64,000 nt of DNA from a virus (IMGVR_UViG_3300028883_000044:16793-80792), one strand, 5' to 3'. Positions 8,297 through 63,961 are shown, counted from the stretch's first letter. Notes: generated by a model not told the origin, from the letters alone. Made by a program: numbers and translations.

Positions 8297-8322
8297 ATAC
8301 TCCTCCTTTCCTAAGTATAAAT

Positions 8323-8345: not shown

Positions 8346-8361
8346 TACTTTCCTATAAAAA

Positions 8362-9270: not shown

Positions 9271-9287
9271 TATAGCTATATCCTCCT

Positions 9288-9851: not shown

Positions 9852-9864
9852 CTTGGATTACTCC

Positions 9865-46371: not shown

Positions 46372-46386
46372 ATTTTTTCTCCTATT

Positions 46387-46734
46387 TTATTCAACTAGTT
46401 TATTAAATTTATATGAAGTTACTTTTTTACCTTCAACTTCATATCTTTTTCTACACTTATCGCAAAAGATAGCATTTGAACTACTTATTTGAATATCTTC
46501 TAAAGAAAATAAATCACCACAACCTTCACATTTTATTAAAGCTTCTTTTTCTGAAAATGTTTTTCCACAATCTGGGCAATAAAAAATTAAATTTTTATTT
46601 TCAGAATTAGATTTAAAAATAATATCAATACATTTTAGACCATTTAATGTTAATTTAGGCGTTCCATAAAAATTAATAGATTCATTTAAATCAATTAGTG
46701 CAAAACTCTTTCTACATTCACTATGGTATATCAT
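46387..46734 (-). CDS. Cys-rich Zn-finger protein
   Basis: CPDC, CEGC, CDKC. Confidence 0.65.
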   Translation of the reverse strand: MIYHSECRKSFALIDLNESINFYGTPKLTLNGLKCIDIIFKSNSENKNLIFYCPDCGKTFSEKEALIKCEGCGDLFSLEDIQISSSNAIFCDKCRKRYEVEGKKVTSYKFNKLVE

Positions 46735-46747
46735 TTATAATTTTCTC

Positions 46748-47800: not shown

Positions 47801-48545
47801 TTAAAATTCTTCCTTTTGAAGTTATTTGTATGAGATTGTTTCGTAATAAAAATGGTTCGATATAATTTTCAATAGTATTAGTAGGAACTCCTAAATATTT
47901 TGAGAGAGTTTTCAATGAAACAGCTTTATTATTTTCTAGTAATTCTAAATATTTATAATCTACATCAGTAAATCCATCTCTATATACACCAAAAGTATTT
48001 AAAACATCTATTGTAAAATCTAATGAAGGGTGTTTACCAGAATTCCTATAATAAACTTTTAATCTTTCTATGAGAGTTTTTACTACTCTAGGAACTCCTC
48101 TACTTCTATTAACAATTTCTTCTAAAATCTTATCATCATTAATTTTCAAAAAATGTTTAGCCATATTTTTTAAATCTTTTTCAGTATATTCTTCTATATA
48201 AAGAGACATACATCTATTAACAAGAGGTTCAGGCAAATCTCCGATTTCTGTTGTTAGTAGAAAGATTGTATATAATCTTTTATCCATTATATGATATAAA
48301 GTTTCTGGAGTTCTCATTAAATGTGCTTCATCTATAATCATTACAGAAGAAGTTTTAATAGGTTTATCTCCAAGAATCACTACATAATCTTTATTAGCTA
48401 ATTCTGCAGTATAAATTGCAAAAGTAGTTTTACCATAACCTGACCTACCTTGTAATAATATATTATGGTTAATATTCTTTGAAATATCCTGTGAAATATA
48501 ATACAATTCTGTTTTTAGTTTTTCTTGTCCAAATAATTTTACCAT
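47790..48545 (-). CDS. ruvB: RuvB-like AAA+ ATPase (shortened)
   Basis: FGQEKLK, GRSGYGKTT, IDEAH, SRGVPR, DGFTDVDYKYL, TIENYIEPFLL...IQITSKGR. Confidence 0.8.
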   Translation of the reverse strand: MVKLFGQEKLKTELYYISQDISKNINHNILLQGRSGYGKTTFAIYTAELANKDYVVILGDKPIKTSSVMIIDEAHLMRTPETLYHIMDKRLYTIFLLTTEIGDLPEPLVNRCMSLYIEEYTEKDLKNMAKHFLKINDDKILEEIVNRSRGVPRVVKTLIERLKVYYRNSGKHPSLDFTIDVLNTFGVYRDGFTDVDYKYLELLENNKAVSLKTLSKYLGVPTNTIENYIEPFLLRNNLIQITSKGRILNEI

Positions 48546-49270
48546 TAAATTTGCAAGTTCCTTTCGAAAAAATCTTTATATAGAAGTAAAGTTTCACCAT
48601 TTAAAGAGGGTGCAGTATTAACTTCTATAACTTTATACCCATAATTCTTTATAAAACCCATATCAACTCCCATAAATCTTAACGGTAAAACTTCGTAAAT
48701 CTTATCTACTAAGTTTATTGCTTTAGGAAATGCCTCAATATTTTTTCGTTTAAATGTATAATTATTTTTAGAATTTCTTATAGGATAAGTTTCTTCACTT
48801 TCTGAACCATCTTCTGGCATAAAAACTTTCTTAAAAACTTTCACAACTTTTCCATCAAGAACATGTACACGAATTTCGAATTTAAAATCGTAAAAATATG
48901 AATAATAATTATACCTATATTGATTAAATTCTTCTTCATTAGTTACTATTTTAATACCCTTTCCACATGAACTTCTAGTAAGTGTTCGTATAAAAACTGG
49001 ATAAGATTCTGGTAAAATATTTTTATATAATGTAACATTAGGAACTCCAGAAATTTCCATTAATTCTGAAAAGGAAACTTTAGAAGAAGCTTTTATAATT
49101 AAATTTTTATCATTTAATTCAGTATCCTGTAAATAATCTCCATTAGTATTTCCCCAACGAATTGCTGGAGAAATTATTTTAGGTTGTAAATAACAATTCA
49201 TATTTAATAAATTTGCTAATCTTCTTGCAGTAATAATACCACTCTTACTTGTTAAGATATACTTTTGCAT
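48545..49270 (-). CDS. ATP-grasp enzyme (phage RimK/YheCD-like)
   Basis: IRWGN, GKGIKIV, EIRVHV, IRNS, FMGVDMG, IEVNTAPSL. Confidence 0.85.
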   Translation of the reverse strand: MQKYILTSKSGIITARRLANLLNMNCYLQPKIISPAIRWGNTNGDYLQDTELNDKNLIIKASSKVSFSELMEISGVPNVTLYKNILPESYPVFIRTLTRSSCGKGIKIVTNEEEFNQYRYNYYSYFYDFKFEIRVHVLDGKVVKVFKKVFMPEDGSESEETYPIRNSKNNYTFKRKNIEAFPKAINLVDKIYEVLPLRFMGVDMGFIKNYGYKVIEVNTAPSLNGETLLLYKDFFERNLQI

Positions 49271-50379
49271 ATATTCTCCAAAGTTTCTTCACTATTTAAC
49301 ATGAATGGAAATTCCAAATTGTTTTCTTTATAAATATCTGATATTTTATTTTCACCTACTTTTTCTAAAATACTTTTCCAAGCTACTTTTTTACGATCTG
49401 TATTACCATCTATCATATTTTTTACTTCACTTTTAACAGTAATTGAAGAAATATTATTTAAATTTAATAGATTAATTTCTTGAGGAGTTTTTGTATTTTT
49501 AGATGCTATAAGTAATGCTATCATTACTTCTGGATAAGATAATCCACTTTCATATAATATATTTCCCAAACCTCTTTCATAGCTATTTATAGTAGATTCT
49601 GAATAAGTTACTCTAGCATATTCCTTTTTAGTTTCTTCTAAAGTATCTATTTTTATTAAATCTCCATCTTTAATTGTGAATATAGAATTTTCTTCCAAAC
49701 TATCTACTTTGTATTCTAAATTAATTATGCTGTTATTTCCCATTAAAAATAATTTAGATAAATCTAAAGTAGTAACTAAATCATCTTTTTCTGTATTAAT
49801 CATTAGATAATTTAATTTTTTTCCATCTTTAAATTCTATTGTAATTATTGCTTTGAATAAAGTTGCAGTTTTTCCTCTAGCAAAATATACTTTATTATCT
49901 TTTTTAGAGAAAATTCCAAAAGCAAATTTCCCATCATATATTTCATAAGTTTTCTTTAAAGCCTCTTCCATTGAGAGGTTATTAAGATTATTAGATAAGT
50001 TTTCTGCAAAATCTTCTGAATCAGTTTTTCCAGTAATAGTTGTTCCGTCTTTCTTTGTAAGAGTTCCATTATGAACAAGTATCAAATTATCTTTATCAAA
50101 AGGATGTGCATTTTCATCAGTAATAGTTGTTTTTAAAACGCTTGCTAATCTTGTATGTAATAAAATACTATAAGATTTATAAGTTAAATTTTGTAAAAAA
50201 GGTAAATAACTTTTAGAAGTAGTAGCTTTTTCTTTATCTTTATATAAACTTCCATCAGTTATATTATAAAAACCCCAACCATCTTTATTTTTAACACTAT
50301 TACTAAGCATCTGAAAATTAATTAATGTATTAACTACTGAAGATTTATTTTTACCTGAGATGTAAGTTATTTGGCACAT
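49252..50379 (-). CDS. Class II (Ntn) glutamine amidotransferase
   Basis: N-terminal MCQI, DGWG, HTRLAS, NAHPF, VHNGTL, TDSE. Confidence 0.9.
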   Translation of the reverse strand: MCQITYISGKNKSSVVNTLINFQMLSNSVKNKDGWGFYNITDGSLYKDKEKATTSKSYLPFLQNLTYKSYSILLHTRLASVLKTTITDENAHPFDKDNLILVHNGTLTKKDGTTITGKTDSEDFAENLSNNLNNLSMEEALKKTYEIYDGKFAFGIFSKKDNKVYFARGKTATLFKAIITIEFKDGKKLNYLMINTEKDDLVTTLDLSKLFLMGNNSIINLEYKVDSLEENSIFTIKDGDLIKIDTLEETKKEYARVTYSESTINSYERGLGNILYESGLSYPEVMIALLIASKNTKTPQEINLLNLNNISSITVKSEVKNMIDGNTDRKKVAWKSILEKVGENKISDIYKENNLEFPFMLNSEETLENICKSIS

Positions 50380-51502
50380 TTTCTATACTAAATTCTCCTC
50401 TATTATGTATATCAATATAGTTAGGTTCTTTAACTAAAATACCTTCAGTTAAACTTTTAGGTTCATAATCTCCATTAAAATATCTTGAATCTGGATTTTT
50501 AAGTTGCATATGGGAGATTACATATTCTTTTTCTATAACAGGATATTCTGAATAATCAAACAAATCTAATATTCTAGAAACTAAAGTAGGAAACTTTGTT
50601 TCATACTCATCTAAAATGTATTCTAAAATCTCTCTAGAATTATAAAGAGGATTATAAACAGAGTTTATAGCGGAAAAACCTAAGTTTTTTAGTTCGCTAT
50701 AACTTGTCGATAACATTTTATCTGTAGTTGCTTGACACAAAAGTATTATAGCTCTTATGTCTAAATCATTTAGAGTTTGATTAAAAACTCTATATTCCAA
50801 TGTTCCATATTTATTTAATGAATAAAGATTTAACCAGTGGTATCTTACAGGATGATATTTCGTTCCTGTGAATTTAATATCACCATATCTTTCGAAAAAA
50901 TCATCTAAAGTTTCTGATAATATTAAATCAAATGTATTAAATATCTGAGCTTTCTTACCTGAACGAGTTTTAATAACTGATGGACCATAAAGTGTTAAAG
51001 GTCTACAATAAGTAAAGTCATTATAAATTCCTCTATGATAATCTTGTAAAGAACCTATTCTATAAAATATAGATTCAACTCTAGTAGCCCATCTTATAAT
51101 TGATTTTAAATTCTTTAAATTAATATTCTTTCCAATATTAATATGAATATGAACCGAACTTCTTTTATTATCTATATAAGATTCTACACTAGATAATATT
51201 TTACAAACTTTCTCTAAATTATCTATAAAATGTTTAGAAGTTGGATTACTAGGTTGAGAAATAATTTCTCCACCAAAAGTATTATAAGAAAACTTATCAT
51301 AAATAGGTGAATTAAAATTTAAATTAATATCTGAATAAAAGTTCTTTTGTGAGAAAGAAGTTTTCTTTGTTTCTACACTAGCATCTCTAACTATATTCCA
51401 ATTATTATTTTGAATATCTTGTTTAATTTTATTTGTTAATAAAGTATTTTGAAGTTCTATTTCAACTCCTACAGTATCTATTGCAGGATAATCTAAATTC
51501 AT
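50351..51502 (-). CDS. Putative amidoligase (Amidoligase_2, GCS/GS-like)
   Basis: TVGVEIE, WNIVRDASV, EIISQP, SVHIHI, RYHWLNL...GTLEYRVF. Confidence 0.85.
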   Translation of the reverse strand: MNLDYPAIDTVGVEIELQNTLLTNKIKQDIQNNNWNIVRDASVETKKTSFSQKNFYSDINLNFNSPIYDKFSYNTFGGEIISQPSNPTSKHFIDNLEKVCKILSSVESYIDNKRSSVHIHINIGKNINLKNLKSIIRWATRVESIFYRIGSLQDYHRGIYNDFTYCRPLTLYGPSVIKTRSGKKAQIFNTFDLILSETLDDFFERYGDIKFTGTKYHPVRYHWLNLYSLNKYGTLEYRVFNQTLNDLDIRAIILLCQATTDKMLSTSYSELKNLGFSAINSVYNPLYNSREILEYILDEYETKFPTLVSRILDLFDYSEYPVIEKEYVISHMQLKNPDSRYFNGDYEPKSLTEGILVKEPNYIDIHNRGEFSIENVPNNLHLR

Positions 51503-51505
51503 TTT

Positions 51506-51757
51506 TTATTTACCTTCCGCTAAACGCAATCTTGAATTAAAAGCTTCGGAAACTTCTCCTATACTTTTTGGTATAACATATACCAATTTATTATTATTTG
51601 ATTTGGTTATAATAACTGATGTATAAGAACCATGATAATCTTTTATATTAACCATCTTACCTAATAAAGCAACAGTAACCATAAAATCTAATATTTTATC
51701 AAATGTAATAGAATCTCTAGAAAAAGCATCTGTTAATTCTTTTTTGAAGCATTCCAT
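51506..51757 (-). CDS. Hypothetical protein
   Basis: ORF track. Confidence 0.55.
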   Translation of the reverse strand: MECFKKELTDAFSRDSITFDKILDFMVTVALLGKMVNIKDYHGSYTSVIITKSNNNKLVYVIPKSIGEVSEAFNSRLRLAEGK

Positions 51758-52353
51758 AAAGGACTCTCTCTAATTTCTTCCATATCTTTTGTGGGAAAAA
51801 ATCCCAAACATTGTTTATTAAAAGCATCGAATTCTTTATTAGAAACTCTATCTGCTATTTTTAAATCTTTTTTCCATAAAACATAACTAAAACCTGACCT
51901 ATAATTTAAACCAAAATCTATTTTATCAAATTTTGCAAGCGATAAGAAAATTTTTATATCTTCTTGAAAATCTGCTGTTATATAATATATTACAGAATAA
52001 TTATAAGCTGTTACAATATTTTCTATTAAAGTTATTACTTTAGGTTCTTTCCATGCTCTTACTATACAACCTCCTAAATCAGTTAAAAGACAATTACCAC
52101 AATGACTTTCAAAAGTAGTTAATCTAAAATCTAAATAATTATAACTATAATCATTAATTACTACACTTAAAGAATTATCTTTTATTCCAGTTAATACTCT
52201 TATCCTATTAAAGTTAACTTCTTTTTTTCTTTCTGTTATTAAATTATAAATAAAAATTTTACAATAGTTTTCTAAATAATGTTTTACTTCATCACTTTTA
52301 AGATAATCTTTAAATTTATAGTATCCACCATTCATAATAGAGTTTCTATCCAT
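51733..52353 (-). CDS. Hypothetical protein, possible divergent GNAT fold
   Basis: SHCG...YNYSVIYYIT...FLSLAKF...NYRSG..VLWKK. Confidence 0.45.
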   Translation of the reverse strand: MDRNSIMNGGYYKFKDYLKSDEVKHYLENYCKIFIYNLITERKKEVNFNRIRVLTGIKDNSLSVVINDYSYNYLDFRLTTFESHCGNCLLTDLGGCIVRAWKEPKVITLIENIVTAYNYSVIYYITADFQEDIKIFLSLAKFDKIDFGLNYRSGFSYVLWKKDLKIADRVSNKEFDAFNKQCLGFFPTKDMEEIRESPLWNASKKN

Positions 52354-53165
52354 AAGTTTTTATAAAAATCCTTTCCATATTTTTCTGATATTGTTTCGTT
52401 AAATTGCTCTATATACTTATTCAAATATTTGGATTTATAATTAATACTAATATAAACTTCATCTTTAACTGTCATAACATTTTGTAAATAATTATATAAA
52501 AACATATTACCTTTACTATCTATATAACTTTCTTCGGTTTTTTCTAGTGTAGAACTTCTAGGCAAGTAAAAACATTTAAAATATTTAGAAAGTTTTTCTT
52601 TAATTATAGGATATAAATCTAAAGGAACTATATAAATGAATTGTGTAAACTTTAATGCAGAAATAAGTTTTCCAAAATATATATATAAAAGTTTTAAAAT
52701 TTCACTTCTTTGTTCGGTATTTATTTTACTATTTTTATAGAAATTTGTTTTAAGATAAACTGTTCCACAAACTGTGGGAAAAAGTGATACAACTACTGTA
52801 AATAATTTTTTATCAGTATCTTTAGAAAAAATTGTAATATCAAGTCTAGTATAACTTGAATACCTTTCCCTTGTAAGAGAAGTTTTAATAGGTTCGACAA
52901 TAATATTTTCAATATAGTTTGTTAAATTTTTATCAAAAAGTGCTTTAAAATCAATTTTAAATTGAGATTTTAAATCTCTATTTAGCTGACTTTGTAAAAA
53001 ATTTTCTTTTAAATTGTATTTTTCAAAAACTTTATTAAAATCTTCTATAATATCTTTAATAGAATCATAATCAGATATTTTCCATCTTTTTGTTGTAAAA
53101 TTAAAACTACTCTCATTAATTAAGTATTCAAAATCTTTTTCTAATTTTTTAACTAGATTGTCCAT
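52332..53165 (-). CDS. Hypothetical protein (shares CG motif with 51733-52353)
   Basis: FPTVCGTVYL...KFTQFIYIV. Confidence 0.55.
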   Translation of the reverse strand: MDNLVKKLEKDFEYLINESSFNFTTKRWKISDYDSIKDIIEDFNKVFEKYNLKENFLQSQLNRDLKSQFKIDFKALFDKNLTNYIENIIVEPIKTSLTRERYSSYTRLDITIFSKDTDKKLFTVVVSLFPTVCGTVYLKTNFYKNSKINTEQRSEILKLLYIYFGKLISALKFTQFIYIVPLDLYPIIKEKLSKYFKCFYLPRSSTLEKTEESYIDSKGNMFLYNYLQNVMTVKDEVYISINYKSKYLNKYIEQFNETISEKYGKDFYKNLWIETLL

Positions 53166-53628
53166 AGAAATCTTCCCATAATTTTTTATTTAGAATATAG
53201 TATCTTAATATTTGTGAGCCTCTTACAGTATTACTATAAACAAAAGGTTTAAGTATTTTAAATCCACTATTTATTAAATAATAATCTCTAGTACAAATAC
53301 CAGCATTTACTATATATAGAAGATTATCAATATCATATTTTGTATGAACATTATAAAATAATTTATTAATACCTATTTTAAAATAATTATATTTATCTTC
53401 ATTAGTAATTATATTTGAACTATATTGTTTAACATAAACATTTAAATTTGCTAAAAATAAGGTTTTCCCTAAAAAATCCATAAATTTACTTTTACTAAAT
53501 AAAATATCTAATTCTCTAAACTTTATATATACATCTTTTGTAACAGGTGTATAAGAAGTTGATGCACGAGTTATGGTAAATTCTTCATCACCATATACAC
53601 AGTAAAATTTAAAACTATTTTGTAACAT
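53149..53628 (-). CDS. Hypothetical protein
   Basis: LLYIV...YLINSGFKIL. Confidence 0.55.
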   Translation of the reverse strand: MLQNSFKFYCVYGDEEFTITRASTSYTPVTKDVYIKFRELDILFSKSKFMDFLGKTLFLANLNVYVKQYSSNIITNEDKYNYFKIGINKLFYNVHTKYDIDNLLYIVNAGICTRDYYLINSGFKILKPFVYSNTVRGSQILRYYILNKKLWEDFYGQSS

Positions 53629-53839
53629 TTTCTTCCTCTAATCTTTTAAAAATATATGGATAAGTTATATTATCACATTCTCCATAAAAATTGTATTGAA
53701 TAAAATTTTTATAATTCTCAACCTTTGTTTTAGTATTTAAACCATAAAGTTCTCTAACTTCTTGAGAAATTTCTTTTATAGATTTTTCAACCCTTCTTAC
53801 ATTATTTTTATTGTAAGTTATTGTAGTTAATAATTTCAT
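53615..53839 (-). CDS. Hypothetical protein
   Basis: ORF track. Confidence 0.55.
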   Translation of the reverse strand: MKLLTTITYNKNNVRRVEKSIKEISQEVRELYGLNTKTKVENYKNFIQYNFYGECDNITYPYIFKRLEEENVTK

Positions 53840-54201
53840 TCTAGTATCCTTTCCATTATATCTTCCAGTAGATTTTCTAAAATCATCTCTGGAAAAAAAT
53901 CTTCTTCTTCTTCAATTAAAGGTTTTATAATATCATCTGATTGTAAAGTATACATAAGAGTACGTTCGGATATTTTTTTAACAGATACTGTTTTAAGTAA
54001 ATACCCGTAAGACTCTAGAAAATTTTCTTCTATAGCTTGTTGAAAATCTAATTTAAAAAACTCATTTAAAAAATCTTCAATTAAATATTCTGAAAAATCT
54101 ATCTTTACATAGATAGTAGAATTCCCAATAATAGTAAAATCTTCTTCTATAGAATAAGAGAAGTTAGTATTAATATTTATTGAATCTATAAAAGTATTCA
54201 T
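53836..54201 (-). CDS. Hypothetical acidic protein
   Basis: ORF track; ATGA overlap. Confidence 0.55.
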   Translation of the reverse strand: MNTFIDSININTNFSYSIEEDFTIIGNSTIYVKIDFSEYLIEDFLNEFFKLDFQQAIEENFLESYGYLLKTVSVKKISERTLMYTLQSDDIIKPLIEEEEDFFPEMILENLLEDIMERILE

Positions 54202-54668
54202 TTCATTTCAGTTAAATTTAATAAATATTTTCCTTCCAGTTTATTTTTATTAATAAATCTCTCTAATCTTACTTTATATTCTTCCCCATAATATGATATA
54301 ACATTTCCAAAAAGATTATTATAACCTTGATGATTAAAAACTTCAAATTTAACTGTTCCAGAAACTAGAAAATTAACTCTAGTAGTATTAATAGAATTAA
54401 TTTCTTCATTCTTTTCAGAATCTTTTATTTGAATATTTTTAATACAGCATTCTAAAGATAAATCATTTAATATATTTTCAGTGACTTTCTCACCAAAATC
54501 ATTTAGAAACTTTTTAGAAACTTGCTCTCTTATATAAGTTGGTATTAATGTAGAAAATTTAATTGTAATATTAAATACTAATGAGGTATTTTTTAACAAA
54601 GTATTGTGTCTTATATTGAAAGTATTTTCTGTATAAATTCCGATATTATCTACACTATTAATTAACAT
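54198..54668 (-). CDS. Hypothetical protein
   Basis: ORF track. Confidence 0.55.
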   Translation of the reverse strand: MLINSVDNIGIYTENTFNIRHNTLLKNTSLVFNITIKFSTLIPTYIREQVSKKFLNDFGEKVTENILNDLSLECCIKNIQIKDSEKNEEINSINTTRVNFLVSGTVKFEVFNHQGYNNLFGNVISYYGEEYKVRLERFINKNKLEGKYLLNLTEMK

Positions 54669-55062
54669 AATTTTTCTCCTGTTTATTTAGCAAGGTTATT
54701 GCCGATAACATATTATTTAACATTCTTGAAACTTCTTCTAATACAATAGTTAATATACAATTTTTGCCTTCATTTTCTAATAAAAATGTAAAAGAATAAC
54801 AAAAACTATATTTTAAAAAATCTTCTACTATAAAATCTGAACCATATCTAATAATATCATCACATCTTTGTTTAATAAGTTGCTTATATGAATCTCTAGC
54901 ATTTTCTGTAAATAAATTAAAATCAGGAAAGACCGAAAAGATTTCATTTTTATTTACTTCAACCACTACTACATAATTATTTTTTTTAGGTTCATATATA
55001 GAAACTGAATGATTTAATATATATTTTCTTTTAACTAAATTGGTATCAAAAAACTTTTCCAT
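54658..55062 (-). CDS. Hypothetical protein
   Basis: ORF track. Confidence 0.55.
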   Translation of the reverse strand: MEKFFDTNLVKRKYILNHSVSIYEPKKNNYVVVVEVNKNEIFSVFPDFNLFTENARDSYKQLIKQRCDDIIRYGSDFIVEDFLKYSFCYSFTFLLENEGKNCILTIVLEEVSRMLNNMLSAITLLNKQEKNYVN

Positions 55063-55065
55063 ATT

Positions 55066-55584
55066 TTATCCTTTAAAAGCTAATGAAGTTGATATAACTA
55101 AAGATGTTTTAAAGTATTCTGAATAAGTTTTTAAATCTTTTTTTAGATTATATTCAATACATTTTGGTAAAGAATCAAGTGTATCTACTCCTAAAATTTT
55201 ATCGTATAAAAAACTTCCATATAAAACTCCTCCATTTCTTTTAGGTAAAACTGTACTAACTTCATCTAAACAAGTTATTCCAAAAACATCTTCAGTATAA
55301 TTCTTATTAGTTAATCTATCATAAACTAGAGAATTATATTTATTTAAATCACTTACAACAATAGTTTTAATACCATCTGAAATAATTTTTCTGAGTTTAA
55401 CTGGAAAAAAGTCTAAAAATTTTTCCATAAAAAATATATCAACTTTTGCTGTAAAAAATCCTTTAATATAATAATAATTAGTATAATTTTTACTTTCTAA
55501 ACTACTTCCTAAACTAAAAGGTGGTGTATAAATTACTCCAGAAACATGTAAACAATTTACCTCATAATCTTCATGCAGTTTCAT
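55066..55584 (-). CDS. Hypothetical protein
   Basis: ORF track. Confidence 0.55.
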   Translation of the reverse strand: MKLHEDYEVNCLHVSGVIYTPPFSLGSSLESKNYTNYYYIKGFFTAKVDIFFMEKFLDFFPVKLRKIISDGIKTIVVSDLNKYNSLVYDRLTNKNYTEDVFGITCLDEVSTVLPKRNGGVLYGSFLYDKILGVDTLDSLPKCIEYNLKKDLKTYSEYFKTSLVISTSLAFKG

Positions 55585-55771
55585 CTATACCACTTATTAA
55601 TGAAAGAGTAGCTATCATTCTTTTAATATCTTTTTTAGTGAGATTAGTTATAGTAAAGCTATGCTCAGAATCTCCAGCAAATAATTCATAATCTTCTTTA
55701 TCAGTAGTTTTAATTTCGAGTTTAAATTTTTTCTCAGTAATAAGATTACCAACAATTTTTATGCAATTCAT
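55571..55771 (-). CDS. Hypothetical protein
   Basis: ORF track. Confidence 0.55.
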   Translation of the reverse strand: MNCIKIVGNLITEKKFKLEIKTTDKEDYELFAGDSEHSFTITNLTKKDIKRMIATLSLISGIDETA

Positions 55772-56138
55772 TTTTTCTATCCTTTAATTCTAATAATTTT
55801 TCTAAAAAACCATATTGTATAGGAAACTCAATATATTCACTTTCTAATTCTTGTGTAATAGATACTACAGGAAGAATATCTTTACTAAGTTTTAGTAAAA
55901 GAATTTCGCAATTTCCTATTGCATTAATAAAATAACCAATATCATAATTTTTATTTTCAGAAATAATTTTAGTATAAGATTCTATTACATCTTCAAAAGC
56001 TTCTTTTGGTAAAAAAGCCTGCAAGATTTCTTCAGAATTTCTCTTTATATATAATCTATATAGAGTATCTGAGTTAAAAGAATTTAAATCTTTATCTATG
56101 TATAAAGTTTCTGAATCGTTCGTCAATAATTTTGTCAT
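55746..56138 (-). CDS. Hypothetical protein
   Basis: ORF track. Confidence 0.55.
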   Translation of the reverse strand: MTKLLTNDSETLYIDKDLNSFNSDTLYRLYIKRNSEEILQAFLPKEAFEDVIESYTKIISENKNYDIGYFINAIGNCEILLLKLSKDILPVVSITQELESEYIEFPIQYGFLEKLLELKDRKNELHKNCW

Positions 56139-56312
56139 TTATTTTCTTTTCCTTATTTTCTTTAATTTTTTCTTTACCTATATTAATGATATTCTTTAAT
56201 TTATAAAAAACTTTATTAAGCATTCTTAAAAACTTCCTTTCTTATTAGATATATAAAAAGATATAAAATTAAACCTAGAATAATTACTCCAAACATTTTA
56301 TTCTCCTTTATT

Positions 56313-56615
56313 TTAGTTTAGTTTATATTTAAAATTATGTGGTATCCATATTCTAAAAGTAACTATTAAAACTTTTTCATCAATTTCCTCCAATAGAATA
56401 TTTGAAATTTGCTTTACTTCTATATCAGTAACTTCATAAAGATAATTATAAGATGATTTGAAAAAAATCTCTAAAAACTGATTTATATCATTTTCTGTAA
56501 AATGTCTATTTCCAGTTAAACTAAAATTACTTTTATATGTAACTTCTATATTATTTTCATTGATAAAAGTTTTTAAACATTTTAAACTATCTTCTCGCAA
56601 GAGTATTTCATTCAT
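56313..56615 (-). CDS. Hypothetical protein
   Basis: ORF track. Confidence 0.55.
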   Translation of the reverse strand: MNEILLREDSLKCLKTFINENNIEVTYKSNFSLTGNRHFTENDINQFLEIFFKSSYNYLYEVTDIEVKQISNILLEEIDEKVLIVTFRIWIPHNFKYKLN

Positions 56616-56623
56616 TGTATACT

Positions 56624-57055
56624 TTATTTTAAATCTTTCATTACATATTTTTTGGGAACTTCTATATTAAAATCTCTTCCAATATTATCTACTTTTCTTA
56701 GTAAAAAATCTTCTAATCTAAGTTTTATTTTAAAGATTTCTTTCAAAATTCCTTTCCCATAAAAATAATAATCGTATATTGGAACTTCTGCAATAACTGA
56801 TACTACAAAGTTACTTCTGTTAGTATAACATATTTTTACTTCTTTGACTTTATAAAAATAAGAATTTAATCGAGATTCTAAATAATCTTTTAGGAAAGTT
56901 TTAAACTCATTATTATCAACAATATCTTCAGAAGTTTTCCCTTCAAACATATTATTACAAGTAATTTCTACAGTATTTAATTCAGTTTCTAAACTAATAT
57001 TTTTAATAGTAACTTCGTTAAGTTTAAGTTCAACTATTTCCATTAGTTTCTCCAT
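56624..57055 (-). CDS. Hypothetical protein
   Basis: ORF track. Confidence 0.55.
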   Translation of the reverse strand: MEKLMEIVELKLNEVTIKNISLETELNTVEITCNNMFEGKTSEDIVDNNEFKTFLKDYLESRLNSYFYKVKEVKICYTNRSNFVVSVIAEVPIYDYYFYGKGILKEIFKIKLRLEDFLLRKVDNIGRDFNIEVPKKYVMKDLK

Positions 57056-57494
57056 TAAATATTTTTTTACAAATTTCTAAGTAGTCTTGAACGATTTTTT
57101 CGCAAGTATCTATACGATAAAGATACCTAGAATCTTGGTTATAAATATTACAATCAAAACATAATTTAACATTCATTATACAGTTGCTTTCCATATTTAA
57201 TGTACTAAAAGATACAAGATCAGTTATTAAAACTTTAGGATAATCACATTTATAATCAAAGTTTAAAAATTTTTTTCTTATTTCTTTATATAAAGTTACA
57301 TGAAGTAAGTTAGCTAAGTTCATTCTATCAGTAACATCTGGAAAAGGCTCAACCAAAGTTATTTTAGAAAGAACTGTTAAAAAGTAACTTCTATAAAGTA
57401 AGTCTTTTAAATTTTCTCTTATAAGAGAAGTTGGTACTAAAGTAAATGTATTAAATTTATTATATTCTTTAATGAAATCATTAGGGTATTTCAT
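57030..57494 (-). CDS. Hypothetical protein
   Basis: ORF track; AAAGGA RBS. Confidence 0.55.
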   Translation of the reverse strand: MKYPNDFIKEYNKFNTFTLVPTSLIRENLKDLLYRSYFLTVLSKITLVEPFPDVTDRMNLANLLHVTLYKEIRKKFLNFDYKCDYPKVLITDLVSFSTLNMESNCIMNVKLCFDCNIYNQDSRYLYRIDTCEKIVQDYLEICKKIFNGETNGNS

Positions 57495-57515
57495 TTTTAA
57501 TTTCCTTTCAAAACT

Positions 57516-57677
57516 CTATAGACAATTAGTTAAATAAATAATTACACCAGCAAGTAGATAATAAATAGCGGTAGAAACTAACAGTAACTTAGTATCTCTA
57601 CAAAATCCCGCTAAAAAATAAAAAAAGCTATATATAAAAGTTACTACTACAAAACCTAATGGTAAGATTATTTCCAT
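57516..57677 (-). CDS. Small two-TM membrane protein (53 aa)
   Basis: MEIILPLGFVVVTFIYSFFYFLAGF...; GGAGA RBS. Confidence 0.5.
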   Translation of the reverse strand: MEIILPLGFVVVTFIYSFFYFLAGFCRDTKLLLVSTAIYYLLAGVIIYLTNCL

Positions 57678-57998
57678 TTATTCTCCAAAATAAACTATAT
57701 TAGTATTTTCTTTATCTTTATATATAACATCAAAAAAAATCTCCATGCCAAATAAAATCTTACAAGTATATATTATATTATTTCCTGAATATCTTTTTGT
57801 TTTTTCTAACATCAAACATTCAGTACTATTTTTAAATCTTTGCTGTAATTATTTATTTAAATAAAATGCTAACTCTTTATTCGTTAAACCTCTGGTAGAA
57901 ATAACTTCATAATCTTCTTCTATATGTATAAATATACCATTTATAGATAACTTTTCTTCTAAAATACTTTCATCATTTAATTTTCTAACTTTTATCAA
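57678..57998 (-). pseudogene. Small gene interrupted by one in-frame TAA (57849-57851)
   Basis: AAGGAGA RBS, TTG start, 107-codon frame ending at the next ATG, single internal stop. Confidence 0.55.
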
Positions 57999-58357: not shown

Positions 58358-58386
58358 ATTATACCACATAATAAACTTCGAGACAA
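58358..58386 (-). promoter_or_regulatory. Leftward sigma70 promoter for the AT-rich block
   Basis: TTGTCT-17-TATAAT with TG extension. Confidence 0.65.
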
Positions 58387-59007
58387 ACTTTTTTTAATCT
58401 ATACGAAAGTCAATTTTGAAAGAAAATCTGTTACTATCTCCTAAAGAAACTTTATTTAGAACGAAGTTATAAATCAGAAAAAAAAGTTAAGTAAAATCTT
58501 ATGATAAAAAAGATAATCTTTAGTAGTTACTTCGCTAATAGCAAAGATTATTATAGAGATTATCTTTCAAGGGAAAAGTTTTTACTAAAGATTATACAAA
58601 TAAAAATAAAAAAGTTTCAAAGATTATTATATAAAAATAAATATTCTTCTAAAGAAAATATAAAAGATTTATAAAATTCAGTAAAGAAACTTTCGCAGTT
58701 ACTTTGGTAGAAAGATACTTTCTTTAAAAGAAACTTTTTTATGTATAAACTTTCTTATGTAGTGAGGACATAACTTTTATTTGATACTGAGTACGCACAT
58801 GGGGATTACGAACTGAGTACGCACAGCCTCCCCTATAAAGGTATATTAAATGAAGAAATGTACGCACATGCTCAATGAAATTGTTCTAACATATACTAGA
58901 GAAAAACTGAGTACGCACTAGGCTTGTATAGATATATATTAAATGAAGGCTTGTACGCACATGCTTACGGAAATTGTTAGGACAAAAAGTCATTGTACGG
59001 AGGGTGG

Positions 59008-59036
59008 TTGTATTTGTTAGCACTGACGGGTATAAT
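59008..59036 (+). promoter_or_regulatory. Cassette 1 promoter with GT-N4-AC in spacer
   Basis: TTGTAT-tt-GTTAGCAC-7 nt-TATAAT. Confidence 0.75.
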
Positions 59037-59187
59037 TTAATTAATGAAGGCGATAGCTATGTGCACGAATTTCTTGTGCAGATGGCTATTTTATTTATGC
59101 ACTAGGAGGTGCTTATAAGACCATTATTTTCTGTTAGTCCAAATTTTTTATGTCTTACAAAAAATCAATTAGATACAAGGAGTTTAT

Positions 59188-59526
59188 ATGGCACAAGAAA
59201 AAGAAAGTGAATACAATATCTTTGTCCTCGTTCAAAATGATGAGGTACAGAGATTAGAGTCTGAACAGGGTGGTATAGTTACTACACCCTATGGGAAGTG
59301 GTACGCCACTTTCATTGAGTACGGGAATAATGGTTTGAACATTTCCGGACCAGTTCTCCTTAAGCAAAATGGTAAGGCACTCAGAGGGTTCGTGCAGTTT
59401 GATACATTACTGAAGCCCGTAGCAATTCGTGCATACCAAACACTATCAGAACAAGAATATGTAGTTCCAGTTCTTAGAGCAGGAAACAATAAAACTATGT
59501 CCTTCTGGATGAAAAAGGATAACTAG
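59188..59526 (+). CDS. Hypothetical protein (cassette 1)
   Basis: AAGGAG RBS. Confidence 0.75.
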   Translation: MAQEKESEYNIFVLVQNDEVQRLESEQGGIVTTPYGKWYATFIEYGNNGLNISGPVLLKQNGKALRGFVQFDTLLKPVAIRAYQTLSEQEYVVPVLRAGNNKTMSFWMKKDN

Positions 59527-59544
59527 AAAAGGAGTTAGTACAAA

Positions 59545-60081
59545 ATGGCTACAAATGAAAAAACAGAAAAAACTGAACAAAAAGCAAGTTCAACCAAGAA
59601 AGTGGAGTTCCCATCAATTCCTCTACCTATACTTGCTAGCGGTGGTGCACTCGAGGGGTGGGGTGCTGACTTAAAAACTTTGCAAAAGTTAGAAATAAGT
59701 AAGGACAATGGTAAAACTTGGGTTGCTATAAAAATTAAGGACAAAGGTGAAGGACAAAACTTACATCCTGAACAAAAGAAAGTTTTGTTGTTTACGGCAC
59801 TGGCAGTTCTAACAGGTAGTAGAGCGGATAGAGGCTGGGCGTACAAGATATGGTTGGCTGAACAATCTAAAGTAGTTCTGCAGTATTTTTCAAACTTACG
59901 CGTTCGTGTCAGCAGTCCGAACTCGGCAGTGCCGGGTTCTGATTTTAAGGTGACCGAGGCGTGTGCGTTCGCACAAGCAATGGCACCCATACTGAAACGC
60001 AGTAAGGACACATATCCACCTCGTTCACAAACGAGGTCGAAATCGAACGAAGAGGAGAGTTGGGACTACTCCATTGTATAA
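59545..60081 (+). CDS. Hypothetical protein (cassette 1)
   Basis: AAGGAG RBS. Confidence 0.75.
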   Translation: MATNEKTEKTEQKASSTKKVEFPSIPLPILASGGALEGWGADLKTLQKLEISKDNGKTWVAIKIKDKGEGQNLHPEQKKVLLFTALAVLTGSRADRGWAYKIWLAEQSKVVLQYFSNLRVRVSSPNSAVPGSDFKVTEACAFAQAMAPILKRSKDTYPPRSQTRSKSNEEESWDYSIV

Positions 60082-60111
60082 AGTTTAATAGATCAAGTCC
60101 CAAATAGATCA

Positions 60112-60216
60112 GAGGACAGGACACAGTTAGTCCTGTCCTCAAAATTTTTTGGGTTAAGCACTTTGCCATAGTGTTTAACCTTTCTCGTTATGCTAGCACA
60201 ACCCTGAGTGTTAGCA
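60112..60216 (+). ncRNA. Three tandem stem-loops (structured 3' UTR or small RNA)
   Basis: Stems 60112-60140 (11 bp), 60152-60180 (11 bp), 60191-60216 (9 bp). Confidence 0.45.
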
Positions 60217-60224
60217 CCCCTGTC

Positions 60225-60261
60225 AAGTAGGCACTCAATTTTTGAGTGCCTACTTTTTTTT
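60225..60261 (+). terminator. Rho-independent terminator, cassette 1
   Basis: AAGTAGGCACTCAA-ttt-TTGAGTGCCTACTT + T-run. Confidence 0.85.
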
Positions 60262-60547
60262 ATGTCCCATAATTTTTTAGAACCGAGTACGCACAAGAAC
60301 CAGTTACCATTTTCAGTAAGGACAAGGTTTCAGTTACTACAAAATGTCCCTACAAAAAATTGCGTGTATCTTAAAAATGCAAGTGTTACTCAGTACGCAC
60401 ATGGTGTTCGAACAGTATATGTAGGAACTCAGAAGTGTTATAAACTGAGTACGCACAGGGAAGTGTATAAAATACATATTAAATGGAGAAGTGTGCGAAC
60501 ATGCTTGGTGAAATTGTGCCTACTCCAATTCTATGTACGCTAGTCCC

Positions 60548-60576
60548 TTGTAAATGTACGCACTATATGGTATAAT
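60548..60576 (+). promoter_or_regulatory. Cassette 2 promoter with GT-N4-AC in spacer
   Basis: TTGTAA-at-GTACGCAC-7 nt-TATAAT. Confidence 0.8.
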
Positions 60577-60627
60577 TTAGGTAGGGAAAAACCGTTCATC
60601 TGAACGAGATTAGAAAGGAAGGACATA

Positions 60628-61656
60628 ATGGCAAGAAGGAACTTAAAGCGGTATCAGACCGTAATTAAAGAAGGGGACATAAAGCTAGAGGGTGAACAGC
60701 TATTGTATGAAAGTTACAGTGCTAGCACACCAAATGGTAAGGACAAACGCTTGCAAGAGTTACTGAAAGAAAAGTACGGACAGGGTTCTGTTATAGGACC
60801 ACGCAGGGAAGTTGGCACTGGTTTTAAGCCACTAGTGTCAGAATTTCGTGCCTCCATATGGAGATGGTGCGAACTATTTCCAGAGGGCACACATGCAATA
60901 AGTATGAAAACTCTAATGGAAGGTAGGAACTTCAGTGAGTACAGGGATGAAGTTATACCTTTCATTCCGTTTGTACTGAAAGAGGGGGAGGAGTTAGAAC
61001 AAAGAGACCCCATCCATACAAGGATTTTGTGGACCATAGCATGTTTCTGGTATCACAAGGGAAACGGTCCTAAACCAGACGGTAGGCGTGCACCCAGAAA
61101 CAGGAAAAGCACTACTGATAATTGGATGGACACTCTAAAATGTCCTGTTTGTAATGTCATGTACACACTGACTAAACATGATAGGACAACAAAATCCAAG
61201 GAACAAATAATGTTGGACTACTCTACATGGTTAGCCAAACACAGTAAAACGTGCCAGTCCGAAAGAGAGTTCAGACAGAAAGTTTTAAGGCAAGCCAAAA
61301 AGAATCGTGAGTACAGAAAAGAGCAAGAGGACAAAAGAAATGCTATAGTCCAGCGGGATAAGGTATTAGCACGGAAGGCAGAGTTAGAACGGGGTATCAT
61401 AGAGAGGGACATAGAAATTCTAGCCTTACGACAAAAAGTGCAGGACACAGAACACTTTGAAACTCGTTTTGAGTCCCACATGAGGTATGCGGCTGAACAG
61501 TCGCAACTACAAGCAAAAATTCGTGCTAACATGGCAAAGAAGTTAGCACAAAAAAGAAAGGCTAACCCACCAGTTACCCTTGAGGACAAAGTAGAAAAAG
61601 CCTTACGAGATATGGTAGAGCACAACAAGCGTCGTTCAAAAAAGAAGAAGAAGTAG
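60628..61656 (+). CDS. Basic protein with CxxC...HxxxC Zn motif and coiled coil (cassette 2)
   Basis: CPVC...LAKHSKTC; Lys/Arg-rich tail; AAAGGAAGG RBS. Confidence 0.75.
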   Translation: MARRNLKRYQTVIKEGDIKLEGEQLLYESYSASTPNGKDKRLQELLKEKYGQGSVIGPRREVGTGFKPLVSEFRASIWRWCELFPEGTHAISMKTLMEGRNFSEYRDEVIPFIPFVLKEGEELEQRDPIHTRILWTIACFWYHKGNGPKPDGRRAPRNRKSTTDNWMDTLKCPVCNVMYTLTKHDRTTKSKEQIMLDYSTWLAKHSKTCQSEREFRQKVLRQAKKNREYRKEQEDKRNAIVQRDKVLARKAELERGIIERDIEILALRQKVQDTEHFETRFESHMRYAAEQSQLQAKIRANMAKKLAQKRKANPPVTLEDKVEKALRDMVEHNKRRSKKKKK

Positions 61657-61677
61657 AACAAGAATCCCAGTAACAAC

Positions 61678-61706
61678 AAAACCTCTGTTTACACAGGGGT
61701 TTTTTG
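61678..61706 (+). terminator. Rho-independent terminator, cassette 2
   Basis: AAAACCTCTGT...ACAGGGGTTTTTT. Confidence 0.8.
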
Positions 61707-61979
61707 TTTGGACAGTATTCAATTTTGATACTGAGTACGCACAATAATTTTCAATTTCAATAGAGTGTCCGTTACTGTTTAGTTGTCAGTACAGAGAACT
61801 GGGGGGTTTAGTAAACTCTAAATCAGAACAAGCTTTAATAGAAGATACCTAGTACGCACAATATGGTCCTTACATAGGAGTAAGGGAAATACTGAGTACG
61901 CACACCGCCACATTTCGCTTAAAACACTATTTAAATGAAGGTATGTGCGAACATGCTTGGAGAAATTGTCCTAACTAAC

Positions 61980-62008
61980 TTGACTTTGTAGGAACTGCGT
62001 GGTATAAT
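61980..62008 (+). promoter_or_regulatory. Cassette 3 promoter with GT-N4-AC in spacer
   Basis: TTGACT-tt-GTAGGAAC-7 nt-TATAAT. Confidence 0.8.
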
Positions 62009-62073
62009 ATAGATGACAGGGGAGTTCGTGTCCCCACTAAAATTTTAGTCCTAACAAGAAAGGGAGTGTAAAC

Positions 62074-62400
62074 ATGCTGGAAAAAGACTTACTTAGTATT
62101 AGTATGGTTGCTGCAGAAGGAGTGTCCTACGTGAGGGTATTCGTTCCCAGTAACCGCTCGTTTGTCCTAGCGGAGAAACGATGTCAGCGTTTAGAAAAAT
62201 TTCTAAACGACGAATGGGAGTGGGCACAAGCCGAGCTTACCTCTGATAAAGAGGGTGGCACACTAAGGTTAAAAGTGGCACCCGAATTGCTTATAAGGGT
62301 AACGACAGTCTTGTGCAAAGAGGTAGGCGTCATAACATGCAACCTTCCGTGTGCTCAAAGGGAAGGTGAGGAAGATTTAAATAGAGGTTGGAATGACTAA
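62074..62400 (+). CDS. Hypothetical protein (cassette 3)
   Basis: AAGGGAG RBS. Confidence 0.7.
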   Translation: MLEKDLLSISMVAAEGVSYVRVFVPSNRSFVLAEKRCQRLEKFLNDEWEWAQAELTSDKEGGTLRLKVAPELLIRVTTVLCKEVGVITCNLPCAQREGEEDLNRGWND

Positions 62401-62662
62401 AACCGTTATAACATACACAATGCGTGCTAACGACGACGCATCAATCCTAATAAAAGTTCCTGCAAAATTTTCAGTTTCCACAGAAAAAAATGTTAGGAAT
62501 ATTTTTGAAGAGATATACAAGGATATCGACCCCACAAAAGGGTGGTATGTGAACGAAACTTTAGGTGTAATAGAGTTTCGTGTCCCAGAAGAAATTTTAG
62601 TTGAAACATATAACCAAGTGTTCGACTTGGTTATAGATAGTGTCTACGGAGGTGGTGTGTAG
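62393..62662 (+). CDS. Hypothetical protein, apparent paralog of 62074-62400
   Basis: GAGG RBS; aligned motif pattern. Confidence 0.7.
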   Translation: MTKTVITYTMRANDDASILIKVPAKFSVSTEKNVRNIFEEIYKDIDPTKGWYVNETLGVIEFRVPEEILVETYNQVFDLVIDSVYGGGV

Positions 62663-62689
62663 AGACATAATAATATCGTTCAGACATAA

Positions 62690-62719
62690 AAAGAGAGGGC
62701 TAACAACCCTCTCTTTGTT
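62690..62719 (+). terminator. Rho-independent terminator, cassette 3
   Basis: AAAGAGAGGG...CCCTCTCTTTGTT. Confidence 0.8.
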
Positions 62720-62945
62720 GTTAAATAGAATTCAGTATCTACATAATTTCAGTTAGGACAATATGTATACACATAGCTTCCCGTTAGGACATTCAATTTC
62801 TAAAGCATACTTAGTACGCACAAGATTCCCCTAAAATTAAAATAAAGGCTAAAAGTAAGGACAGCTTCTAAAAAGAAACTGAGTACGCACACGCCCGTAT
62901 TAAGAATCATAATCGTGCACACTAGAATACTATGTACGCTATGTC

Positions 62946-62974
62946 TTGACATTGTACCTACTATTTGATATACT
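62946..62974 (+). promoter_or_regulatory. Cassette 4 promoter with GT-N4-AC in spacer
   Basis: TTGACA-tt-GTACCTAC-7 nt-TATACT. Confidence 0.8.
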
Positions 62975-63027
62975 TATCTTATCTCATTAACTGCCTTTAA
63001 GGCAGATTTAACAGAAAGGTTAAAATA

Positions 63028-63288
63028 ATGCAAAGAGGTACAAAATTAGAAAAGTGGGACAAAAAGAGAATCGTGAACGATTTTCTCATAGAAAATTTCG
63101 TAAAGGTGCTCCCTTATAGGGGGTGCTCACTTATAAACGATTGTCCACAACACTACTCCATGCAAGACAAGCTTTTACAAGCGGCACGCACTTATCATAT
63201 GCAAACTACTACTAAACCGTTCGCAAATAACACTGCGATAGAAAATTACGGATACGTCCTAACTATGAAAAGGTTAGGGTTATGCTAA
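63028..63288 (+). CDS. Hypothetical protein (cassette 4)
   Basis: AAAGGT RBS. Confidence 0.65.
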   Translation: MQRGTKLEKWDKKRIVNDFLIENFVKVLPYRGCSLINDCPQHYSMQDKLLQAARTYHMQTTTKPFANNTAIENYGYVLTMKRLGLC

Positions 63289-63572
63289 ATACAGTGCACA
63301 CCCCTCTAGTGGAAATAGTCAAGGCATATTATGGTTCAGCCTTGGAATTCATTGTAGACAAGAATCCCTGTTTAGTCAGGGATTCAGTTAGACCTATAGG
63401 CATTTGGGTTTACTCAGAAGATTGTACCTGTGAAATGCTTATAGAATATACCATATTTATGTTAGACCAAAAATATAGGTATACTCAGGAGTTTATGTTT
63501 GGAAAGAAGGGGAAAGGTGGAAAAGGATTAAGAGTTCCTATAAGAATCCCACTATCCTTACTGACAGACTAG
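63282..63572 (+). CDS. Hypothetical protein (cassette 4)
   Basis: Overlaps upstream stop. Confidence 0.65.
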   Translation: MLNTVHTPLVEIVKAYYGSALEFIVDKNPCLVRDSVRPIGIWVYSEDCTCEMLIEYTIFMLDQKYRYTQEFMFGKKGKGGKGLRVPIRIPLSLLTD

Positions 63573-63581
63573 TGTAAACAT

Positions 63582-63611
63582 AAATCCCCTTGTAAGGGCA
63601 AGGGGATTTTG
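63582..63611 (+). terminator. Rho-independent terminator, cassette 4
   Basis: AAATCCCCTTG...CAAGGGGATTTT. Confidence 0.8.
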
Positions 63612-63806
63612 TATTTAAAAGAAAACTCAATTTAGACAAAGCTATTTGTTAGGACAATTACAAAATTCAATTTACAAACTTTTTTTGTTAGGACAAAAAC
63701 GTTCCCACAAAATTCAATTTTGGAACTATTTCCGTTACTACTATAATCGTGCTAACAAACCCTTAACGGCGTTACATTGTGATTTTTTTCACAAGCGGTA
63801 ATTTGT

Positions 63807-63883
63807 GCTGGTGGCTGGTAGCTGGTGGCTGGTGGCTAGTAGCTGGTGGCTGGTAGCTGGTGGCTGGTAGCTGGTGGCTGGTA
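63807..63883 (+). repeat. 11 x 7-bp tandem repeat GCTGGT(G/A) containing six GCTGGTGG octamers
   Basis: Octamers at 63807, 63821, 63828, 63842, 63856, 63870; one unit is GCTAGTA; followed by (TA)n. Confidence 0.95.
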
Positions 63884-63961
63884 TATATATATATAAATGT
63901 AGAAAGAAAGAAAGAGAGGGGAAAAATATAAATATATATAAAAAGTGATACATGAAATCGT

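Follow-up and report, generated by a model that had tools for sequence, protein, structure and literature searches.

We describe a 5-kb island of densely packed GT-N4-AC sites in the genome of an uncultured marine-sediment phage and propose, at roughly even odds (a probability of about 0.5), that it serves a dimeric protein with GntR/AraR-like GT-N4-AC specificity as an operator array, through which the gene cassettes of the island would be switched or silenced together. The window analyzed is a stretch of 64,000 nucleotides, bases 16793-80792 of the 80,792-bp viral contig IMGVR_UViG_3300028883_000044, and positions are counted from the first letter of the window. The island lies at 58743-63756, is assigned to neither strand, and holds 95 exact sites at a guanine-plus-cytosine (GC) content of 39%. 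A strict split palindrome with A/T flanks and a minimum spacing that exceeds the length of the site both point to simultaneous occupation by a sequence-specific protein. The fixed place of a site in the promoter spacers, accompanied by longer oriented sites upstream, and a DNA-level signal that is independent of reading frame point to a protein of the same kind.

Enrichment of GT-N4-AC within and between genes

The 95 sites compare with 23.1 ± 4.3 in dinucleotide-preserving shuffles (z = 16.5). A reading of the same DNA from the sequence alone (here, the sequence-only reading) had arrived at about 90 sites by hand count, with an abrupt start near 58740, and both estimates prove close to the exact values. 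Enrichment is seen only at the 4-base gap; gaps of 0-3 and 5-12 bases yield 13-31 sites, which is within or near expectation. When all 16x16 dinucleotide pairs are ranked at gaps of 0-8, GT-N4-AC comes first and GT-N5-CA second, the latter because A follows GT-N4-AC. Site density is approximately 19 per kb in the island and 2 per kb elsewhere in the genome, where the remaining 75 kb contain 159 sites against 162 expected and so show neither excess nor avoidance; the first 600 bases of polA, spot-checked in the earlier reading, indeed contain none. The onset of the motif at 58743 is abrupt and coincides with a rise in GC content from the 21-24% found immediately upstream to approximately 40%.

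The enrichment extends into coding sequence. Seven open reading frames (ORFs) in the island contain 38 of the sites, with the other 57 located between genes, and this coding count exceeds both the 19.3 ± 2.5 obtained when synonymous codons are shuffled within each ORF (maximum 29 in 1000) and the 11.9 ± 3.4 obtained under codon permutation. It is strongest in the ORF at 60628-61656, where the 15 sites expected from the sequence-only reading were counted exactly, compared with 3.8 ± 1.4 in the shuffles, and it is not detected in the last two ORFs (63028-63572; 3 sites). Coding sites fall in all three reading frames. The excess over both codon shuffles, together with this spread over frames, argues that the motif is imposed at the DNA level, with codon choice and amino acid order both bent toward it. 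Duplication accounts for little of the enrichment, since the 95 sites represent 91 unrelated contexts when compared by 16 nt of flanking sequence. Density is uneven: intergenic stretches have 21-34 sites per kb, compared with 13-15 in the ORFs of cassettes one to three. The earlier reading had regarded a loss of coding enrichment under shuffling, or a uniform distribution over the genome, as fatal to its idea of a second code laid over the genes; neither was found. That idea, a DNA-level code read by a dimeric protein, agrees best with the tests, although profile searches of the phage genome found no gene for the reader; in the earlier reading, the bound protein might serve in silencing, in protecting or pulling first-injected DNA, in segregation, or in titrating a host factor.

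A separate, smaller excess was noted at 8000-10400, in minus-strand head genes, where 15 GT-N4-AC sites occur against 6.9 expected. These sites lack the A/T 3' flank and are for this reason judged unrelated to the island; the excess is probably an effect of codon usage.

Form, spacing, and orientation of the sites

The four outer bases are strictly required, as no enrichment was found for any of the twelve single-base changes to G, T, A, or C. Inside them, 55 different tetramers occur, and these show no self-complementarity. With the initial G, present in every site, numbered as position 1, position 4 leans to C or A (C in 44/95) and position 5 to G (52/95), so that at least one of C4 and G5 is present in 75 of the 95 sites; T is found at position 4 in 13/95, and no constraint is seen at position 6. 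An A or T follows AC in 89/95 sites and precedes GT in 72/95, against a background of 0.61, which bears out the A/T flanks described in the sequence-only reading. More specifically, position 9 is A in 64/95 sites, and position 0 is T in only 27/95. No information content was detected at positions -3 and +12, where the outer arms of an AraR box (A1/T16) were sought. The secondary preferences at positions 4 (C or A), 5 (G), and 9 (A or T) are common to coding and noncoding sites.

Neighboring sites are never closer than 11 bp from start to start. Jittered or uniform placement predicts approximately 10-11 closer pairs, and a complete lack of such pairs was obtained in 0/5000 simulations. Such a minimum is as expected for footprints that are occupied simultaneously. 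No helical periodicity was found in the spacing. Although the GT-N4-AC core is symmetric, orientation is clear in a subset of sites: GTACGCAC occurs 14 times in the island and its reverse complement not once, and eleven of these copies belong to a longer oriented 13-mer, ACTGAGTACGCAC, which with small variations is found in one orientation in 11 cases and in the other in 0.

Several familiar elements were considered as the identity of the motif and set aside. DnaA boxes and CIRCE half-sites were dropped with only 6 sites of the GTTAGCAC or GTGCTAAC form, and a DnaA-box cluster (TTWTNCACA, with conserved T4 and C6) does not agree with the invariant G at position 1, the rarity of T at position 4, or the free position 6. 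The inverse arrangement AC-N4-GT, as in LexA Cheo boxes, is not enriched, and hairpin-forming mini-palindromes find no complementarity in the flanks.

Organization into promoter cassettes

All genes of the island are on the plus strand. They are arranged in four or five self-contained cassettes, in which a sigma-70-type promoter is followed by a Shine-Dalgarno sequence, by one or two small ORFs, and by a hairpin terminator. The promoters match at 10-11/12 positions, and 14 terminator-like sites were scored where shuffles give 3.7 ± 1.9. In promoters P1 to P4, a GT-N4-AC site starts exactly 2 nt past the -35 hexamer and thus occupies spacer positions 3-10; the GT and AC of these four sites are invariant, while their inner bases read TAGC, ACGC, AGGA, and ACCT. 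Upstream lies a module of approximately 170 bp, conserved among P1 to P3 and partly in P4, that holds two further sites. The one that follows GAAATT preserves GT, AC, and the flank in four copies with inner bases TCTA, TAGG, GCCT, and CCTA. That GT and AC are kept as the inner bases diverge in paralogous copies argues for selection on the outer dinucleotides. Each promoter is in addition preceded, at a distance of 60-260 bp, by two or three of the oriented 13-mers, eleven in total.

The first cassette opens with three long oriented sites of the ACTGAGTACGCAC type (58786-58918, plus strand; starts at 58786, 58812, and 58906) upstream of P1 (TTGTAT-17-TATAAT, 59008-59036, plus strand), whose spacer site 2 nt after the -35 box is GTTAGCAC. 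It encodes proteins of 112 amino acids (aa) (59188-59526, plus strand; 5 sites) and 178 aa (59545-60081, plus strand; 7 sites), both without a homologue, and ends in two terminator-like hairpins (60112-60255, plus strand), the second of which has a stem built from two inverted sites (GTAGGCAC / GTGCCTAC). Sites within coding sequence, terminator stems, and promoters had all been described in the sequence-only reading, and each is borne out by the 38 coding sites, this stem, and the P1 to P4 spacers, respectively.

The second cassette follows the same plan, with three long oriented sites (60282-60456, plus strand; starts at 60282, 60388, and 60444), promoter P2 with a TG extension (TTGTAA-17-TATAAT, 60548-60576, plus strand; spacer site GTACGCAC 2 nt after the -35 box), the plus-strand ORF at 60628-61656 already mentioned, which encodes a 342-aa protein without a homologue and with a net charge of +26, and a terminator-like hairpin (61678-61703, plus strand). 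In the third, three long oriented sites (61730-61903, plus strand; starts at 61730, 61847, and 61891) precede P3, again with a TG extension (TTGACT-17-TATAAT, 61980-62008, plus strand; spacer site GTAGGAAC 2 nt after the -35 box), and overlapping ORFs of 108 and 89 aa (62074-62662, plus strand; 8 sites), the 108-aa protein having no homologue. The hairpin at its end (62690-62716) is not assigned to one strand; it was scored on the minus strand, and a T run follows on the plus strand too. The fourth cassette has two long oriented sites (62809-62890, plus strand; starts at 62809 and 62878), P4 (TTGACA-17-TATACT, 62946-62974, plus strand; spacer site GTACCTAC 2 nt after the -35 box), and ORFs of 86 and 96 aa (63028-63572, plus strand), which are as foreign in composition as the rest of the island, and it ends in a terminator-like hairpin (63582-63609, plus strand). 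A further promoter-like sequence, P4b (TTGGAA-16-TATAAT, 63720-63747, plus strand), marks the right edge of the island and has GTTACTAC beside its -10 box. No Rfam family was found in the island.

A short reading frame, M-(K/E)-x-C-(T/A)-(H/N)-M-L-x-E-I-V, was also noticed in four copies in the upstream module (58835-58990, 60468-60575, and 61920-62000). It was dropped as a conserved coding element: a ribosome-binding site is not consistently present, and the copies diverge beyond codon 12. The module is probably conserved at the DNA level, with a leader peptide as the less likely alternative.

Genomic context and origin of the island

The first 170 bases of the contig recur at its end, so that the assembly closes into a circle. 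The phage genome has a GC content of 30% and encodes a terminase, a portal protein, a family A DNA polymerase, a DnaB-type helicase, RecA, ThyX, and ribonucleotide reductase, as well as two N6_N4 DNA methyltransferases and an amidoligase/glutamine amidotransferase cluster. No close relative was found among GenBank phages, where the best terminase match is weak (Bacillus phage 0305phi8-36, 26% identity), and no terminase relative that would point to a host was found in bacterial genomes. Approximately 48 IMG/VR contigs encode a related terminase at 48-60% identity. The island is located between two opposed gene arms, beside the junction of the circular assembly, in a variable region flanked by the lysis genes and the amidoligase cluster. 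GC skew tracks the direction of the genes and does not point to an origin.

Several observations set the island apart from this genome. The GC content at third codon positions (GC3) of its ORFs is 0.34-0.43, compared with 0.05-0.24 in twelve other phage genes, and its intergenic GC content is 0.31-0.38. An imperfect direct repeat of approximately 55 bp frames it, with the left copy at 58384-58436 (plus strand), the right copy at 63675-63740, and a third copy near 61740-61780. No match to the island DNA was found in GenBank phages or plasmids, and its proteins have no match in Pfam or PHROG. Among 5.8 billion protein clusters, the 342-, 178-, and 108-aa proteins had no match other than themselves, and the same was true of the 112-aa protein in an exhaustive reading of 1.84 billion representatives; the ESM Atlas gave no usable match. 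Of the 48 loci identified through the terminase, three genomes were read whole; they share the structural, replication, and amidoligase genes and carry neither the island nor any other gapped-dinucleotide island. In view of its foreign composition, singleton proteins, absence from relatives, and framing repeat, the island looks like an acquired block of moron-like cassettes.

Pattern searches beyond these genomes gave little. The 14-mer and promoter-module patterns returned only single chance matches in IMG/VR, with normal motif density at those places. The paired-site pattern was rejected as a lead in metagenomes, where unrelated tandem repeats made up the matches listed; among these, arrays that repeat every 15 bp are located within ORFs and resemble pentapeptide-repeat genes.

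Comparison with known systems

Operators of the GntR family share the signature GT-Nx-AC, and in the AraR box ATTTGTACGTACAAAT, whose core is TGTACGTACA, Pu5, T6, G9, A11, and Py12 are invariant; AraR represses through operator pairs with DNA looping (PMC1950556, PMC3592433). The invariant AraR positions correspond to positions 1, 2, 5, 7, and 8 of the island motif, which has x = 4, strict G, T, A, and C, and a center that leans to C-G as in AraR boxes. The GntR-type spacing remarked on in the sequence-only reading, which had compared it with HutC-type operators (GT-N-TA-N-AC), is therefore a genuine likeness. In contrast to AraR boxes, the island sites have no conserved outer arms and no palindromic inner bases. 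GntR operators number 1-2 per promoter, whereas the island has approximately 95 in 5 kb, many of them in coding sequence. Similarly, NiaR (type I) and MosR are winged-helix dimers that act on TGT-N4-ACA operators (PMC2330245, PMC7145548). These share the core spacing of the island motif, but a T precedes GT in few island sites, and the number and distribution of the sites are unlike a metabolic regulon.

The stoperators of cluster A mycobacteriophages (L5 gp71-type) resemble the island in placing many copies of a short site within transcription units. They show an orientation bias relative to transcription; in the island, orientation is clear for the long 13-mers and for GTACGCAC but not for the symmetric core. 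They are asymmetric 13-bp sites of temperate phages, numbering approximately 25-35 per whole genome and bound by a monomeric repressor. The island differs in its strict 2+2-base split palindrome, its density of 19 per kb, and its confinement to 5 kb, and neither a tyrosine integrase (PF00589) nor an HTH_3 repressor was found above threshold in the phage genome. Closely spaced units upstream of promoters, with cooperative repression over extended DNA, are known from the phi29 p6 complex and from the omega repressor heptads of inc18 plasmids; p6 reads DNA bendability rather than strict sequence, and the omega heptads form contiguous runs of 7-10 units, whereas the island sites are scattered at intervals of 11-60 bp and run on through genes.

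Morons and host-takeover early cassettes, such as the SPO1 terminal module, are units of promoter, gene, and terminator with deviant composition. The island units have these same features, namely their own sigma-70-type promoter, a strong ribosome-binding site, a terminator, a composition unlike that of their neighbors, and small orphan genes, and they can in this sense be described as autonomous cassettes. To our knowledge, such modules have not been reported to be saturated with one short motif that reaches into coding sequence. Operator arrays, stoperators, and GntR-type sites are thus precedents for the concept, and what is new is the density of the sites, their confinement to one acquired block, and their encoding within genes.

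A proposed operator array and its possible reader

It can be hypothesized from these observations that sites of the form W-GT-N-(C/A)-G-N-AC-W are read by one dimeric protein with a specificity like that of winged-helix regulators of the GntR/AraR type. The two or three long oriented ACTGAGTACGCAC sites upstream of each promoter might serve as strong entry sites, and the spacer site directly after the -35 box would place initiation under control. The many short sites between and inside genes could allow cooperative loading over the whole 5 kb, such that the cassettes would be switched together, and protein bound within genes might also form roadblocks. The most plausible switch would be the shutoff of strong host-RNA-polymerase promoters after early expression.

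A number of observations weigh against an operator array. Profile searches of the six-frame genome identified no binding protein: GntR (PF00392) finds nothing in the whole 80.8-kb genome at E ≤ 10, with all control genomes scoring, in agreement with the earlier remark that the window holds no such gene, and the MarR, PadR, and HTH_3 (Cro/C1-type, PF01381) profiles give nothing above threshold. Recognition that demands all four bases, with no enrichment of weaker variants, is seen more often with enzymes than with most transcription factors, and the nonpalindromic inner bases, the asymmetry of the flanks (more constrained on the 3' than on the 5' side), and the nonconservation of the outer AraR positions A1 and T16 are likewise not what such a regulator would lead one to expect. 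The island finds no comparative support in the three relatives read whole, none of which carries it, and no Pfam or PHROG family matches its proteins.

The protein encoded at 32311, put forward in the sequence-only reading as a candidate binder, has a GerE-type helix-turn-helix and is conserved in relatives without the island, which makes it an unlikely dedicated binder. If the binder is encoded in the island, then the best candidate by inference would be the very basic 342-aa protein, whose gene shows the strongest coding enrichment and for which the AlphaFold single-sequence model is poor (predicted local distance difference test score [pLDDT], 57) except for a confident long C-terminal helix at residues 212-312. 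If it is not, a host GntR-type regulator could take this role. We also see a small but real chance that the island is a self-contained mobile "chromatin domain," in which an orphan protein, most plausibly the 342-aa one, nucleates at the 13-mers and polymerizes over the approximately 95 sites, these having been written into synonymous positions of the binder's own gene and of neighboring genes. Were this so, a virulent phage would be timing, insulating, or protecting a block of acquired genes by a mechanism not described before.

If a protein does read the sites, the island would be a natural regulatory code superimposed on coding sequence, with one site per 50 bp and codon choice bent to fit, and would go well beyond known operator and stoperator systems. 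What reads the sites might prove to be a new phage DNA-binding protein, or a host GntR-type regulator put to a new use. The island would also show that scans of motif density can detect functional domains in phages whose genes are all orphans, and a simple, strict motif combined with a small domain makes the present case directly testable.

Alternative explanations

The strictness of the motif leads to the alternative that the GTNNNNAC sites are targets of a DNA-modifying or DNA-cutting enzyme that would put the island into a distinct epigenetic or chemical state, for example, by methylation that gates promoter use or packaging in the manner of the clustered Dam sites at oriC or P1 pac. Such an enzyme would account for the all-or-none recognition of G, T, A, and C, and the phage encodes two N6_N4 methyltransferases. 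The one at 21580-22404 (minus strand) has an SPPY motif, finds its best solved relative in the N4-cytosine enzyme M.PvuII, and has no orthologue in the three relatives, which likewise lack the island; the other (36387-37079) is conserved in all three. We consider an enzyme target unlikely, however, as the 11-bp minimum spacing, the A/T flanks, and the fixed promoter-spacer position would be left unexplained, the rest of the genome neither avoids the motif nor holds it in excess, and a single genome supplies the link between the methyltransferase and the island. Moreover, PvuII-type enzymes usually read contiguous palindromes of 4-6 bp and not 2+2 bases split by N4. The motif could instead be an inherited signature of the genome that donated the cassettes, with no role in this phage, and the foreign composition, the four island proteins that proved to be singletons when tested, the absence of the island from relatives, and the framing repeat would all fit such a history. 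It seems rather unlikely to be the explanation, given that within the same foreign composition the density varies from 21-34 and 13-15 sites per kb down to background at 63028-63572 and that retention of GT and AC among diverging paralogous copies speaks for selection here; a donor signature would in any case merely shift the functional question to the donor genome.

It is also conceivable that the array acts as a decoy, drawing a host GntR-type regulator, or some other host protein that binds GT-N4-AC, off its chromosomal operators by titration, and so reprograms host metabolism rather than phage genes. The match of the motif core to the GntR family signature and the AraR-type core, the lack of a cognate GntR regulator in the phage by profile search, and a number of sites that, at approximately 95 per genome copy, would exceed the chromosomal operators of a typical regulator are compatible with this role, but a fixed site in every P1 to P4 spacer and the regular upstream architecture indicate control of the cassettes themselves. 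No terminase relative that would point to a host was found in bacterial genomes, the AraR-type outer positions are not conserved, and we find a decoy quite unlikely. A function at the ends of the virion DNA appears very unlikely to us: here the island would be a long terminal repeat, or the end that enters first, with sites for end protection, stepwise injection, or packaging. Its position between opposed gene arms beside the circular junction, the direct repeats that frame it, and its several strong host-type promoters would suit a terminal location. Strong host-type promoters reportedly also occur in numbers in the first-step-transfer region of T5 and the terminal redundancy of SPO1, and Bacillus phage 0305phi8-36, which gave the weak best GenBank terminase match, has long terminal repeats. 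Known packaging and injection signals are nevertheless 0.1-0.5 kb long, whereas the array covers 5 kb and has sites within genes. Finally, the explanation that the excess is an artifact of composition, codon usage, repeat duplication, or chimeric assembly might appeal to the distinct composition of the island and to promoter modules duplicated four to five times, but it is already largely refuted, and we give it next to no weight. The dinucleotide, synonymous-codon, and codon-permutation shuffles all remain below the observed count, and the flanking contexts are nearly all unrelated. The assembly itself is reproduced: when the source run, from a marine-sediment metagenome, was assembled independently, the same 80.6-kb circle resulted, and identical fragments from inside and outside the island are present in a run of a second marine-sediment study.

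Neighboring regions

Upstream of the island, the minus-strand arm at 43461-57998 is very AT rich (21-24% GC) and encodes an amidoligase, two glutamine amidotransferase-type proteins, a peptidase C26, an ATP-grasp protein, a COOH-NH2 ligase, and a RuvB-like ATPase, a cluster that may constitute a peptide- or base-modification pathway. These genes are followed by 17 small minus-strand genes that adjoin the island and are not found in the three relatives.

On the other side, in the gap that separates the island from the next gene and just downstream of P4b, a tandem array at 63807-63890 consists of approximately 12 copies of a 7-bp unit (GCTGGTG / GCTGGTA) and reaches the circular junction of the contig. 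It contains the E. coli-type Chi sequence GCTGGTGG six times on the plus strand; the one other copy in the window is on the opposite strand. Palindromes of the CRP/Rex type (TGTGA-N6-TCACA) surround the 204-aa gene that comes after the island, with one upstream (63778-63793) and two downstream (at 996-1011 and about 909-926 of L142); the perfect copies were confirmed. In G001, the closest large relative, the equivalent variable region at approximately 64-66 kb is occupied by a block of 48% GC with dozens of tandem copies of a unit containing TGGATAGCC, an array that is far larger than the 7-bp array and has a different unit.

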